A stretch of 64,000 nucleotides of DNA. Source: Enterobacteria phage CHB7. The position numbers were made by a program, and so were the translations under genes. How positions within the stretch are numbered: the stretch's first letter is position 1; each line of letters opens with the position of its first letter. The stretch is from the sequence record MK562504.1; one strand, written 5' to 3'. The notes under the pieces were generated by a model, which was not told the DNA's origin, searched no databases, and saw only the letters and a list, made by a program, of their open reading frames with translations. Below, in pieces: positions 32,892-52,999 of this stretch.

Positions 32892-34508
32892 TTAACGTCT
32901 AAGCCCCTCATAAGGATTGCTTCTCACTAAATCAGTGTGAGTACCCATAGAAGGTGGCTTGAATAGTTTTACTTCGTTGAGACTGTTGAAAGCATCGCTT
33001 GTGGCATCCACTTGGTCATCCTTGGTTTTCCCATCCCCACAAAAACCTTCCAGTTCTTGGAAATAGGCTTCGTTCCAGCTACCTCTAACGATTTTTACCA
33101 ATCCTGCTTCAGAAGCAGCAGAGAAACCCGCAAAACGGGTAACTTTATCTTTATTGGTTGGTTTGGCTCTTGCACGATAACCTTTCTCGGCAAGTTTTCT
33201 GATAAGAGATGTTGCGTAGGATTTACCAGCAGCGCCTGGGTCTTGAGGAATAAAGATGCCAGTACGTTTGCCGTCGCTTTCAGCAGTCAAGTTAATTTGT
33301 GTCTCGACTCCAGAAGGTCTATCTCTAAATCTTACTACGTTCATGACATAATAGCAACCATCTTTTTTAGATTTAGCCATTCTAACACCTGCTGTCCAGT
33401 CAGGGTTAGGGTTAACTTCAGACGGTAAAGTAGCCGCTAAGTCCCATGCTCTAACGTCAAATACGTCAGGTGGAACTGAATCAACAATCTCACACCATTG
33501 TCTTTGCCAATAGTTAGAACCTTCTGCACGAGCTTTCCAGTTACCAAATCTCAAACGTGCAACGTTTACTGGAGTGTTGTTTTCCAGCTTACCACGATAC
33601 TTCGGTTCCAAGAAGTCAAGGATTGGGTTATCATCAATCGTACCAGAGATAAAGGTATATGTCTGAGGAATCTCCAGAGGGAACATTTCAAGAATCTTGT
33701 CTCTGTCCCAATCAGATACCATCACGCCATCATTCATTACATACCAACGAATACGACCACATTTCTCAGGGTCTGGATAACCTTCTTCGTCTAAGAATGG
33801 TTCTACCCAATCATAAATGAAGTGGTCTCTGTCTGGGTTCATGGAAATCTTCATGTAAGAGTCACCTTCAGCACCAGAACGCAAACGAGTTTGCAGGTAT
33901 GAAATCTGTGACGCAGAGAAGTGTGTACCTTCGTCAAAGTAAATTGCTGAGTATTCAATACCCTGATGACCTTCAGCGTGTTTTTCAAGTTCTAAGTAGG
34001 TAAACTTGATAGTAGCCCCAGAAGGGAATACGATAGTCATCTTCTGTTCATGTGGAACACCACCGAACTTACCAAAAAGCTTCTTCGCAGCAGGCCATAA
34101 ACCACCTTGTAACTGTGTCGTGTTTCGACGGAAGTATACAGCGTTGTAGTTAGGGTCTTCGATAAATCTGAGTGAATCCATCAGCAAAGCAGCAGTCTTA
34201 CCAGCACCAGCCGCACCACCATATAGAACTAAGTCAGCATTTGTGTTAAGAAATACTTCCTGAGAGCCGGGTTGTGGAGCTACATAGTTCTTATCAGTCA
34301 TAAGTTTGAAGATAAGTCTTACTTGGTCTGGAGTGTATCTTAATAAAGTCAGAATCTGAGTAGGAAGGAATTTAGAGGGGTCTTTACCAAATGACTTGAT
34401 AATATCTTTAACTTCATCAGAAAGCCCCAACTCTCCAGCTAGGACTTTCCTTACATCTTCCACTCGCTTCTGCTTAACAGCATTCAAATCCATTAAGCGC
34501 CTCCGCAA
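32892..34508 (-). CDS. terminase large subunit
   Basis: Walker A LYGGAAGAGKTAAL; 538 aa. Confidence 0.85.
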   Translation of the reverse strand: MRRRLMDLNAVKQKRVEDVRKVLAGELGLSDEVKDIIKSFGKDPSKFLPTQILTLLRYTPDQVRLIFKLMTDKNYVAPQPGSQEVFLNTNADLVLYGGAAGAGKTAALLMDSLRFIEDPNYNAVYFRRNTTQLQGGLWPAAKKLFGKFGGVPHEQKMTIVFPSGATIKFTYLELEKHAEGHQGIEYSAIYFDEGTHFSASQISYLQTRLRSGAEGDSYMKISMNPDRDHFIYDWVEPFLDEEGYPDPEKCGRIRWYVMNDGVMVSDWDRDKILEMFPLEIPQTYTFISGTIDDNPILDFLEPKYRGKLENNTPVNVARLRFGNWKARAEGSNYWQRQWCEIVDSVPPDVFDVRAWDLAATLPSEVNPNPDWTAGVRMAKSKKDGCYYVMNVVRFRDRPSGVETQINLTAESDGKRTGIFIPQDPGAAGKSYATSLIRKLAEKGYRARAKPTNKDKVTRFAGFSAASEAGLVKIVRGSWNEAYFQELEGFCGDGKTKDDQVDATSDAFNSLNEVKLFKPPSMGTHTDLVRSNPYEGLRR

Positions 34509-34514
34509 ATAGAA

Positions 34515-34715
34515 TTATTCGGCAGCAACTTCTTCGGCAGCTTTAACACCAAACTTTGCATCAACTGCATCTAACAGTTCATCCATATTGGTTTCTTTAA
34601 TATCTTTACCAGTTGCATTAGCCAGACGGTGAGCAACACTGATAATAGTGTTCTGCAACAGTTCTGCTCTTTTGTTTGCTTCATAAAGTTCTTTGTAAAC
34701 ATTAGTCTCGTTCAT
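34515..34715 (-). CDS. small hypothetical protein
   Basis: 66 aa ORF upstream of terminase. Confidence 0.4.
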   Translation of the reverse strand: MNETNVYKELYEANKRAELLQNTIISVAHRLANATGKDIKETNMDELLDAVDAKFGVKAAEEVAAE

Positions 34716-50404: not shown

Positions 50405-51021
50405 AGACTATGCTAATCACTGAACAGCATTGGGAAATGATAAAGTTTACTGTAAAGACACTGAAAGGGTTTGGTATGACTAAAGAATTTGAGTTAGAGA
50501 GAAAGTACTTGGTACTAAGTTTGGAAGATATTGACAACTATCTTTCACCGGAATGTAGAGACCAGCTTCAACAAATTGTAATGTCACTGAGACATTCAAG
50601 AGAGTTTGTAGATGGTAAAGAGCCACTAAAAGGTATCTTTGTTAAGGAGTCTTATCCGTTCTATAAAGACACTTTGCAGAAACTTGAAATGTATGTTAAA
50701 CAGCAGAACCGTAAAGAGTTCACTATGGTTTCTCTTGGTGGACAACAAATGCTTGTGATGGAAGATATCAACCCTAAACGAGTTAACAGAGGTGTTTGTA
50801 TCAAGGTCACAGGTAAAGAAGAGTTCATTGATGCTACGTACCTAAGCCACATCTTTGAAGGTGGAAGTGCAGTATTGAACCTGAATGAATATCACATCAG
50901 TTCACATCCAATTAAGGGTGACCAGATAATGCTTCAGGTAAGAGAACGTCACAATGGATTCACACACTTCTTCCAGACGACTAAGACCTCGTTGAGAGCA
51001 ATGCTCAAAGAAGTGATGTAA
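50401..51021 (+). CDS. hypothetical protein
   Basis: 206 aa ORF; last gene of plus block. Confidence 0.5.
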   Translation: MKTMLITEQHWEMIKFTVKTLKGFGMTKEFELERKYLVLSLEDIDNYLSPECRDQLQQIVMSLRHSREFVDGKEPLKGIFVKESYPFYKDTLQKLEMYVKQQNRKEFTMVSLGGQQMLVMEDINPKRVNRGVCIKVTGKEEFIDATYLSHIFEGGSAVLNLNEYHISSHPIKGDQIMLQVRERHNGFTHFFQTTKTSLRAMLKEVM

Positions 51022-51027
51022 AGCTAT

Positions 51028-51058
51028 ACAGCCCCTTTATTGGGGCTTTTTTATTTTC
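51028..51058 (+). terminator. rho-independent terminator
   Basis: AGCCCC-TTTATT-GGGGCT hairpin followed by TTTTTTATTTT. Confidence 0.7.
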
Positions 51059-51139
51059 TTATAAAATTTGGATTCACTCCGTTCATCTTGGGTCACCATA
51101 TCATGTGATAAAATATCTACCCTTCTTAGTAGCCTACTT

Positions 51140-51400
51140 AATCTTACTCTCTATATAGTTATATAGTACTATATAGTATCTTAGTCCCTTAGCAGTGAGT
51201 CTCTATAGCCCTCTGTATAACCCTTCTAAATAGCCCTCTATAAAGCCCTCTAATCAATCCTCTTCCAAACCTATACAATCACCTTAACCATCTCTTCATA
51301 GCCCCTTAGAAGCCCCTATACCCATCTTAATCTCTAGGTAAATGATAGTACCCTCTATAGGGTGTTCACTAGGTTCTACTAATCCTCTATATAGACTGTT
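51140..51400. repeat. cluster of short TATAG-containing repeats (CTCTATAG / CCCTCTATAA / TATATAGTA)
   Basis: Three tandem TATATAGTA units at 51150-51180; GAGTCTCTATAGCCC, CCCTCTATAAAGCCC, CCCTCTATAGGGTG, CCTCTATATAGACTG further on. Confidence 0.6.
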
Positions 51401-51699
51401 TTAGCTAACTAAACAGGTATCACCTTCTAAGGCTTATCCTACAAGGTCTAACACGGTACTAACAAGGTATCTTATAAGCCTGTATTTACCTGTTTTATAC
51501 AGAATACTATATAGATATTTATGCAATTCTTTAGTATTTCGTTTAGAAATATCTAAACTCATAAATTTTTATAAAATAGAACTGTCAAGTCACTTTTTAG
51601 GTGTTATGAAGGAACTCAAAAATATCTGTCTAGGATGTATATCTGCTTGGTAGCCCTTAACATCGCCCTTACAAGTCCTTTGCAAAATCTTAAAATATC

Positions 51700-52210
51700 A
51701 TTAACAATTTCTTAACAACTCTCTCAAGCTCTTAACATCTCTTCAGAGTTCTTAACAGATTCTTAACAGGACTAACAAGGGTGTAACAAGTTTCTAACAA
51801 GTGCTACATAGTCTTTACAGAATCTTAACAGATTGCTAACAAGTGCTAATTAGTTAATTTTAAAGGGTTATTTTGTTAAGATAATTAACAAGTTCCTAAC
51901 AAGTGTTTAACCTTTTTAACAAGCTGTTAACATGGTCACTATCTCTGGTCTTATCGTTCCCTTACCTTCTTAGTGATTCTCTAAACATCCTCTTAAAAGC
52001 TCTCTATAGCTCTATACAGCCTCTTTATAGCCCCTTGTAAGGTAACTATAGCCCAAGTAACTACAAAGGGTTTTATAGGGCTTTCTAGGGGCTTTAAAGG
52101 GTATGCCAAAGAGTCTAACAAGAGTTTAACAAGGTCTTAACAATGATTTAACATACCCCTAACAAGGGTAACTATGCAGGAGTTGTTAAGAATTTGTTAA
52201 GAAAATGTTA
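51700..52210. repeat. iteron-like array of more than 20 TAACA(A/G) words
   Basis: Direct copies at about 10-12 bp spacing over 51701-51924 (CTTAACA, CTAACAAG, GTAACAAG); second cluster 52105-52155; inverted copies (TTGTTAAG) 52173-52205. Confidence 0.7.
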
Positions 52211-52225
52211 AGGGGGCTAGCATAT

Positions 52226-52291
52226 ACGTAACTTTTAAGCCCCTTTTACGTAACTTCATAGCCCCTTTTACGTAACTTTTAAGCTACTTTT
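52226..52291. repeat. 3 x 22 bp tandem repeat (ACGTAACTTTTAAGCCCCTTTT family)
   Basis: Units 52226-52247, 52248-52269, 52270-52291 with 2-4 substitutions each. Confidence 0.7.
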
Positions 52292-52327
52292 AAGCCCCTA
52301 TAACATACTTTTTAGTGACTATCAATA

Positions 52328-52670
52328 GGATTCGATAGAGTCCTATCTTATAGGGGATTGTTTAGATATTCACAAGATACTAGCCAGCATATAAGCTTAT
52401 ACCCTTATAAGATTCTTTTAAGGCTCTAGGAAGCTCTATAAAGGGCTTTAAAGAGTGGGTTAATATGATTGGTTAAGTTGAGATGATAAGCCGTTATAGA
52501 GCGTTATAGAGCGTTTAAGGGATTGCCCTTCCCTTTCGGGTTATGGGCTTATATTTAAGGGATTGGTAACAATACCAATTAGTTGATTTGATAAGAGAAT
52601 ATAGAGTAAACTATAGAGTTATTGTTCTAAATGTCTGGAAAGGGATTGTATAAGGATTCGATAGAGTCCT
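52328..52670. repeat. dispersed 17 bp repeat GGATTCGATAGAGTCCT (2 copies)
   Basis: Copies at 52328-52344 and 52654-52670; near-palindromic core. Confidence 0.6.
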
Positions 52671-52684
52671 GTCTCATAGACGTT

Positions 52685-52707
52685 AAAAAGCCCCATTTAA
52701 GGGGCTG
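52685..52707 (-). terminator. rho-independent terminator ending the small-gene array
   Basis: Minus-sense AGCCCC-TTAAAT-GGGGCT followed by TTTTT. Confidence 0.6.
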
Positions 52708-52747
52708 TTAAGGTATCTGGGGCTATTTGCCCCGATGCGGCGTCTTA

Positions 52748-52999
52748 TTAGTCATTGAAGCCGTTTTTGTTGTAGTAAAGAGTGATAATAGAATCACCCC
52801 AATAGTAAGTTGTAACGCCGTATTTTAAGACTTCCTGTTTTGTTTCTTTCCAGAAATTTTCTGACGGTTGATAGTCCTGAATAGTTGCTTTCAGACACAT
52901 TTCAATCATTCCGAAAGCATCACCAGTGCCTACCATGTCAAATTTAACATCTAAAACGTGAAAACCAAAGTTGTTAACAGTTGCGCGGATAGTTGCCAT
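52748..52999 (-). CDS. array gene 1, hypothetical
   Basis: 83 aa; preceded by type A cassette (GNRA hairpin + GGAGA RBS). Confidence 0.5.
   Translation of the reverse strand: MATIRATVNNFGFHVLDVKFDMVGTGDAFGMIEMCLKATIQDYQPSENFWKETKQEVLKYGVTTYYWGDSIITLYYNKNGFND

Follow-up and report, generated by a model that had tools for sequence, protein, structure and literature searches.

A predicted direct terminal repeat with a helically phased TAACA array in the gene-free region of the Felix O1-like phage CHB7

The genome of Enterobacteria phage CHB7 (sequence record MK562504.1) was analyzed here in a window of 64,000 nucleotides, which contains a gene-free stretch of 1.7 kb at positions 51022 to 52747 (all coordinates are those of the window) that is predicted to harbor the ends of the phage chromosome and a dense array of TAACA words. 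The stretch is bounded by the stop codons of two neighboring genes, a plus-strand gene on the left (50410-51021) and a minus-strand gene on the right (52748-52999). A previous reading of the DNA letters alone, here referred to as the sequence-only reading, had described this region as lacking any open reading frame (ORF) of 60 amino acids (aa) or more on either strand and as bounded by convergent terminators. Both descriptions hold: the ORFs of both strands reach 45 aa at most, and a hairpin followed by a T-run was found on each side. The Rho-independent terminator of the upstream plus-strand block (51028-51058) has its hairpin at 51030-51047, ahead of the T-run, with a folding energy of -12.2 kcal/mol that none of 200 shuffled sequences equaled, while that of the downstream minus-strand block (52685-52708) folds with -12.5 kcal/mol (z = -3.1), is followed by UUUUU, and is 91% conserved. 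The two terminators both point inward, one at each side of the region, and positions 51028-51051 and 52685-52708 are inverted copies of each other (24 nt, 92% complementary). The word ACAGCCCC is present in both and is related to the TAGCCC word family found in the noncoding arms and at the repeat edges described below.

The region matches 256 phage records, all of which except one belong to Felix O1-like myoviruses (Ounavirinae). Its nearest relatives are Escherichia phage EP1 (91%) and SUSP2 (87%), both members of the genus Suspvirus, and the neighboring genes and terminators are syntenic in SUSP2, NS7, Sf19, D1-2, Felix O1, Michonne, VpaE1, and Sf16. End-to-end homology to the direct terminal repeats (DTRs) of such relatives predicts a DTR of 569 bp at positions 51649 to 52217 of the window, with an uncertainty of ±2 nt. 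This block aligns over its entire length with the DTRs of Ro111lw, D4, ZX4221, and UAB_69, and its full-length identity to Felix O1-like DTRs is 77 to 92%. The Ro111lw record (MH571750), which has 1,214 bp of noncoding sequence at its start and 1,077 bp at its end, begins and ends with the same 613 bp, and these map in reversed orientation onto window positions 52217 to 51649. Exact terminal identities are also present in D4 (581 bp) and ZX4221 (591 bp), whose records come from other laboratories and share both their edges and their outer flanks, which read ...ATATCTGCTT/GGTAGCCCTTAACA... and ...AATGTTAAGGGGGC/TAGCAT... (with the slash marking the edge). In UAB_69, a repeat_region labeled "DTR" occupies the homologous place and is 2 to 3 nt wider on each side. 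Furthermore, the records of EcSzw_1, H12, E9, and I14.1 open at the DTR edge, and the nanopore assembly of KMM2 carries the DTR block at both record ends (PMC10383413).

The more distant Erwinia phage M7 (NC_041978, genus Kolesnikvirus) has an exact terminal identity of 444 bp, and its left cut context, TGTATATCTAC/TTAGTGGCC, matches TGTATATCTGC/TTGGTAGCC of the window base for base, with the next conserved word lying 30 bp further on in both phages. Most of the M7 DTR has diverged; a block of about 60 bp by the left edge (...CCTTTGCAAAATCTTAA...) can still be aligned to the window. The relatives carry exact DTR ends with identical boundaries, and we therefore assign the DTR to 51649-52217; the alternative boundaries, 51647-52219, are those given by the UAB_69 annotation and the M7 record ends.

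Experimental work on this phage group is in line with this assignment. For UAB_Phi87, studied in the same laboratory as UAB_69, a DTR of 608 bp was determined by Bal31 digestion and run-off sequencing, with two discrete fragments being degraded by Bal31 (PMC4837284). PhageTerm analysis classified Ro111lw and Pr103Blw as DTR phages with repeats of 613 bp (PMC6454146) and 581 bp (PMC8303462), respectively, and "short terminal repeats" were inferred for Felix O1 itself (PMC3185647). The UAB_Phi87 record (JN225449, 87,603 bp) was unusable for placing the DTR, as it is not opened at the physical ends, and a 127-bp "repeat_region" in the circular record of PC79-13 was read as an assembly overlap and was not used as DTR evidence. 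Taken together, the comparison with relatives makes it very likely that this gene-free stretch forms the terminal (concatemer-junction) part of a Felix O1-like chromosome and that 51649-52217 is its short, exact, nonpermuted DTR, and the predicted repeat lies in the same noncoding context between convergent gene blocks as those of its relatives. The virion chromosome would have its start near 51649 and its end near 52217, with the block being present at both ends. The single copy in the window is what is expected from a circularized assembly or a concatemer junction.

The sequence-only reading had proposed an origin, a pac site, or a genome terminus for this region. The terminus is borne out, as the block coincides with the DTR of the relatives, whereas the pac site falls away and the origin, discussed below, received no positive support. 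A headful pac site with circularly permuted, terminally redundant genomes could be argued from the fact that some related records were deposited as circular and that pac regions, for example, in SPP1 and P22, typically contain noncoding repeat arrays. However, the ends of the relatives are exact and fixed, with lengths of 581 to 613 bp and identical boundaries, and the Bal31 and PhageTerm results concur (PMC4837284, PMC6454146, PMC8303462). Because the relatives carry exact, nonpermuted DTR ends, headful packaging is unsupported, and we regard it as highly improbable.

The edges of the predicted DTR were examined in an alignment of the whole noncoding region from 15 enterobacterial phages that belong to three genera, Suspvirus, Felixounavirus, and Mooglevirus, and this alignment also underlies the conservation values given below. 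Mean conservation is highest in the DTR (84%), followed by the noncoding arms on its left (78%) and right (70%). The left boundary word, GGTAGCCCTTAACA (51649-51662, plus strand), is invariant in all 15 phages, and its outer context, TGTATATCTGC(TT) (51634-51648, plus strand), is identical in Ro111lw, D4, ZX4221, and UAB_69. On the right, the three exact DTRs of Ro111lw, D4, and ZX4221 end at the boundary word TGTTAAGGGGGC (52206-52217, plus strand), the reverse complement of which, GCCCCCTTAACA, mirrors the left edge, and the right-edge form TGT(T/A)AAGGGGGC is likewise present in 15 of the 15 phages. Read inward from either end, both edges of the DTR thus have the form TAGCCC(CC)TTAACA, and the two cut sites are mirror images of each other.

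The TAACA word that forms part of these edges is repeated throughout the DTR. Between positions 51059 and 52685, there are 24 forward and 6 inverted copies, 30 in total, with YTAACA accounting for 26, and the DTR alone holds 25 (20 forward and 5 inverted). Elsewhere in the window, TAACA occurs on average 1.84 times and at most 7 times per 569 bp, so that the DTR is 13-fold enriched (Poisson p of ~4e-20). A secondary cluster could have pointed to the gene of an autoregulated binding protein, and none comparable was found elsewhere in the 64 kb. Array A (51702-51932, plus strand) comprises 14 forward copies and 2 inverted copies (at 51874 and 51925), with spacings of 9 to 11, 20, 31, and 49 bp. 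It is followed by a TAACA-free DTR center (51975-52100), in which forward CTCTATAGC and TTTATAGCCCC words give way to their inverted copies and CTATAGCCC-type words likewise occur first in forward and then in inverted orientation; inverted arms at 52023-52041 and 52081-52099 within this center are 84% complementary. Array B (52116-52164, plus strand) contains five forward copies at an exact spacing of 11 bp, and three inverted copies (52184-52210, minus strand; TGTTA on the plus strand), again spaced by exactly 11 bp, run into the right edge. The zone of this inverted triplet is 95% complementary to 51749-51768 and 94% complementary to 51701-51718 in array A.

The spacing of these words is not random. 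The gaps between forward copies are 11, 20, 20, 11, 9, 11, 11, 31, and 11 bp and so forth, ending with four gaps of 11 bp, and 84% of the gaps between consecutive TAACA words deviate from a multiple of 10.7 by no more than 1.6 bp, which was matched by none of 20,000 random placements. The forward copies share a global period of 10.4 bp (R = 0.77), in which the local unit of 11 bp is offset by the spacings of 9, 20, and 31 bp. Phasing of this kind was seen in each of the 15 phages, with a best period of 10.2 to 10.5 bp and R values of 0.71 to 0.81 that were equaled by no more than 2 of 2,000 random placements. The DTR lengths in these phages are 569 to 570, 581, 591, 602, 612 to 614, and 633 bp and hence differ in steps of about 11 bp, or one repeat unit, which suggests that slippage or unequal recombination adds and removes units in a way that preserves the helical phase. 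The copy number varies little (19 to 22 forward and 3 to 6 inverted TAACA words), and within the DTR, the TAACA columns of the alignment are 96.8% conserved, compared to 80.9% for the other columns. The M7 DTR keeps 13 forward and 7 inverted TAACA words in the same layout, with forward copies on the left and inverted copies on the right. Selection that keeps sites on one face of B-DNA would leave a phase conserved in this manner.

These results agree to a large extent with the sequence-only reading, which had noted a spacing of about 10 to 12 bp between direct copies together with inverted copies, corresponding to the 11-bp units and the three inverted copies 11 bp apart. The conservation and the phasing lend good support to its general proposal of a protein-binding array in helical phase, and the TAACA copy number in related phages, which it had named as a point to compare, is conserved in the 15 phages. 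It had also counted more than 20 copies of (C/T)TAACA(A/G); the strict 7-mer is present exactly 20 times (16 + 4), a small correction to that count.

Helically phased direct repeats also raise the question of an iteron-type origin, which could exist instead of or besides the DTR, with an initiator binding the TAACA repeats and melting AT-rich DNA. The repeats are indeed direct, phased, and strongly conserved, the array is separated by about 50 bp from a stretch with a GC content of 21% (51500-51599), and no mapped origin of a Felix O1-like phage was found in the literature. However, the limits of the block are exactly those of the mapped DTR, a match that already explains the conservation, and the AT-rich stretch is poorly conserved and carries an insertion specific to the window. 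Classical iterons are 17 to 22 bp long and are bound by a cognate initiator that is usually encoded nearby. Here, the conserved core is 5 to 7 bp (TAACA plus 1 to 2 flanking bases) in a unit of 11 bp and thus falls short of an iteron, and a scan of seven flanking proteins yielded no Pfam initiator or other recognized function, the single match being to a domain of unknown function. A search for DnaA-box-like sites found none, a search for Chi sites was negative or at chance, and the lone IHF-like match (52576) is at chance level, with nine such matches in the whole window. The GC skew, which the sequence-only reading had suggested plotting to locate an origin, was computed along with the AT skew, and both turn only where the gene strand switches, marking no origin. 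In light of this, an origin at this site is unlikely. A partition (centromere-like) site is likewise unsupported, as the seven neighboring proteins scanned contain no ParB/ParR or ParA/ParM domains. The relatives of the region are, moreover, virulent phages with linear DTR genomes, another point against a partition site, and Pr103Blw has no lysogeny genes (PMC8303462).

If the array is a protein-binding site within the DTR, the question becomes which process it serves. The most likely role is that of a one-face platform for terminase or maturation proteins. It is also conceivable that the array is bound by a protein with another job, such as recombination or annealing in the formation of concatemers, protection of the ends from host exonucleases, or control of DNA ejection. 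The location of the array in the DTR, and hence at both virion ends, is compatible with such functions, and phasing on one face suits any cooperative binder. Yet there is no candidate protein for such a role, and the edge words that are to be cut contain TAACA themselves; the edge words being built from this word, the motif is therefore tied to the cutting machinery. We consider a binder with another job to be rather unlikely, if less so than an origin, and favor the platform for terminase or maturation proteins.

A model for how such a platform might function can be outlined as follows. The flanking gene blocks are predicted to be transcribed toward the chromosome ends and to be stopped by the two terminators, so the 1.7-kb gene-free stretch is best viewed as a putative concatemer-junction region that is shielded from transcription by both terminators. 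Replicating genomes would join via the DTR into concatemers with one copy of the repeat per junction. A maturation nuclease, consisting of TerL and a partner, would recognize the mirror-image edge words TAGCCC(CC)TTAACA and place nicks in opposite strands at a distance of about 570 bp, after which strand-displacement synthesis would duplicate the DTR and leave a full repeat at each daughter end, as in the classical T7-type staggered-nick scheme. The approximately 25 TAACA words on one face could serve as a cooperative binding platform that wraps the DTR into a nucleoprotein complex and marks the DNA for maturation or packaging, and the oppositely oriented CTCTATA and TATAGAG arrays of the two noncoding arms may be accessory sites of this complex.

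TerL is encoded on the minus strand at 32892-34493 (phrog_979, E = 2e-232), and TerL proteins of the Felix O1 type were placed in a DTR cluster (PMC4837284). In previous work on the Felix O1-like group, TerL was the only terminase component found (PMC4591319). A conserved ORF of 66 aa (34515-34715, minus strand; phrog_4397, function unknown, no Pfam family) lies directly upstream of TerL. The gene for a small terminase or packaging accessory protein normally sits directly upstream of that for the large terminase. It is tempting to speculate that the TAACA words, which lie on one face with a 10.4-bp phase in at least four Ounavirinae genera, form the recognition array of an as-yet-unrecognized packaging-initiation protein that polymerizes along the DTR, with the edge words setting the staggered cuts; this is a tentative proposal that we hold to be possible rather than probable, and the 66-aa ORF is a candidate for the protein. 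If true, such a packaging-initiation array would differ from cos, pac, and T7 in its terminase-recognition architecture.

Several points weigh against the interpretation of the region as a DTR with a packaging platform. The window holds one copy of the DTR, and the chromosome ends were placed by homology to relatives. The boundaries given by the UAB_69 annotation and by the M7 record ends lie, on each side, 2 nt from the record ends of the three exact DTRs, one of which is documented by PhageTerm. The conservation statistics were drawn from related sequences, so that the p-values overstate independence, and the phasing in Erwinia phage M7 is not significant when taken alone. The duplication by staggered nicks and the role of the array are steps that we infer. 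PHROGs and Pfam scans of the neighbors of the region and of TerL revealed no small-terminase or DNA-binding family, and we know of no protein that binds TAACA.

Outside the DTR, the left noncoding arm (51059-51648, plus strand) contains a forward array of CTCTATA and CTATAGCCC-type words, with CTATA being present 9 times compared to 0.29 times expected. The AT-rich stretch at 51500-51599 belongs to this arm and shows the lowest conservation within the region. An insertion of about 30 bp (approximately 51530-51569) is found in the window only and is missing from the 14 aligned relatives, with local conservation dropping to 27%; an ORF overlapping it is 129 nt long here and 99 to 100 nt long in relatives. 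The word ATATCTG occurs twice in 51619-51648, just outside the left DTR edge (AAAATATCTGTCTAGGATGTATATCTGCTT). In the T7 sequence, ATCTGTT directly follows the 160-bp DTR (positions 161-167), and we take this word to be the RNA polymerase pause site at the concatemer junction. The likeness between the two is probably coincidental.

On the other side, 3.1 tandem copies of a 22-bp unit, TACGTAACTTTTAAGCCCCTTT (52225-52292, plus strand; score of 101, 82% matches), begin 8 bp beyond the right DTR edge, and the first unit is kept in relatives, while the later ones are variable (32% conservation at 52250-52289). The right noncoding arm (52293-52684, minus strand) carries TATAGAG, the inverse of CTCTATA in the left arm, together with two copies of GTTATAGAGC and three of AAGGGATTG (52517, 52557, and 52640). 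ATAGAG is present 6 times in this arm compared to 0.08 times expected, and its best-kept block is 52410-52449 (96% conserved). It also contains 2.4 copies of CGTTATAGAG (52492-52515) and a dispersed repeat of 27 nt with 93% identity (52327-52353 and 52653-52679). The further repeats that had been listed from the sequence, namely, the 22-bp tandem, the duplicated and triple words, and the dispersed repeat, are each present. The reported "perfect palindrome" ATTGGTAACAATACCAAT (52562-52579) is in reality a 7-bp inverted repeat, ATTGGTA/TACCAAT, with a 4-nt spacer.

With so many repeats and such short ORFs, it may be asked whether the region instead encodes small proteins or noncoding RNAs and the repeats are incidental. 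Small ORFs have been annotated here by others, with three in GEC_vB_NS7, two in UAB_69, and gp118 in Michonne. However, the annotations of related records are either empty in this region or list a few tiny ORFs that do not match each other, and each of the five ORFs of at least 30 aa is intact in merely 1 to 5 of 15 relatives. No Rfam family was found at an E value of <0.1, the best matches (E = 0.11 to 0.98) being to unrelated eukaryotic families. A sigma-70 scan detected 7 promoter-like sites compared to 8.6 expected, and the inward terminators shield both sides from transcription. A coding or RNA function as the main role of the region therefore seems extremely unlikely. The sigma-70 scan also bears on the idea that TTAACA words are the -35 elements of real promoters; as the scan showed no excess, this idea was dropped.

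A further observation concerns the window as a whole. GATC is completely absent from the 64 kb, where about 236 copies are expected from a second-order model, and none of the related Ounavirinae stretches compared contains it either. Such an absence is suggestive of strong selection against Dam sites or sites of GATC-targeting restriction. GGCC and CTAG are moderately depleted in the window, at 0.45 and 0.53 of the expected number, respectively.

The DTR type of Felix O1-like phages is known and is implicit in several GenBank records. Previous reports on these DTRs give lengths without positions or internal motifs (PMC4837284, PMC6454146, PMC8303462, PMC3185647), and the direct repeats listed in the Felix O1 paper are others and do not include the TAACA array. 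The position of the DTR, the mirror-image edge words, and the TAACA array with its 10.4-bp phase thus seem to be undescribed in the publications that we searched. Typing, biocontrol, and therapy directed at Salmonella and E. coli make wide use of Felix O1-like phages, and the location of the chromosome start and end matters for genome orientation, annotation, engineering, and the interpretation of sequencing coverage. The edge words and the phased TAACA array provide concrete, testable targets for DNA recognition in these phages and could help settle how a myovirus lineage that falls outside the T7 model recognizes and duplicates short exact terminal repeats.

Compared to known systems, the predicted DTR is most similar to those of other Felix O1-like phages, as it has the same edge words and flanking context as these and lies between the same convergent blocks. 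Its length of 569 bp is the same as in EP1 and Felix O1, whereas other enterobacterial relatives have 581 to 633 bp, and it differs from its relatives by the insertion of about 30 bp in its left arm. Iteron origins likewise have direct phased repeats by an AT-rich stretch, but the core in the window is much shorter and the block is delimited exactly by the predicted chromosome ends. At lambda cosB (R sites) and SPP1 pacL/pacR, short helically phased sites by the cut site are bound cooperatively by the small terminase, and the DNA is bent or wrapped. These systems use 3 to 7 sites and a recognized small terminase, whereas the window has about 25 sites over 570 bp and a small terminase is not recognizable.

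With T7, the likeness is one of architecture only. The T7 sequence, which we checked, has a DTR of 160 bp and 11 CCTAAAG words within the first 340 bp. Three of these words fall inside the DTR, and the copies beside it follow a 13-bp period. T7 and CHB7 are alike in having a short, exact, nonpermuted, and noncoding DTR, predicted in the case of CHB7, with a short word that recurs in one orientation within or next to it, and both T7 and the Felix O1-like phages belong to the DTR packaging class (PMC4837284). There is no sequence homology between the two, and CCTAAAG at 13 bp contrasts with the 11-bp unit and 10.4-bp phase of TAACA. The array of the window lies inside the DTR, whereas that of T7 lies mostly just inside the left end, and the early promoters of T7 adjoin the left end, whereas both ends in the window face terminators. 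To our knowledge, no T7-like RNA polymerase has been reported for Felix O1-like phages. In T7, maturation depends on pausing of the phage's own RNA polymerase at the junction (PMC3276506). Among the systems considered here, the CCTAAAG arrays of T7 would nevertheless be the closest mechanistic analogue of the TAACA array.

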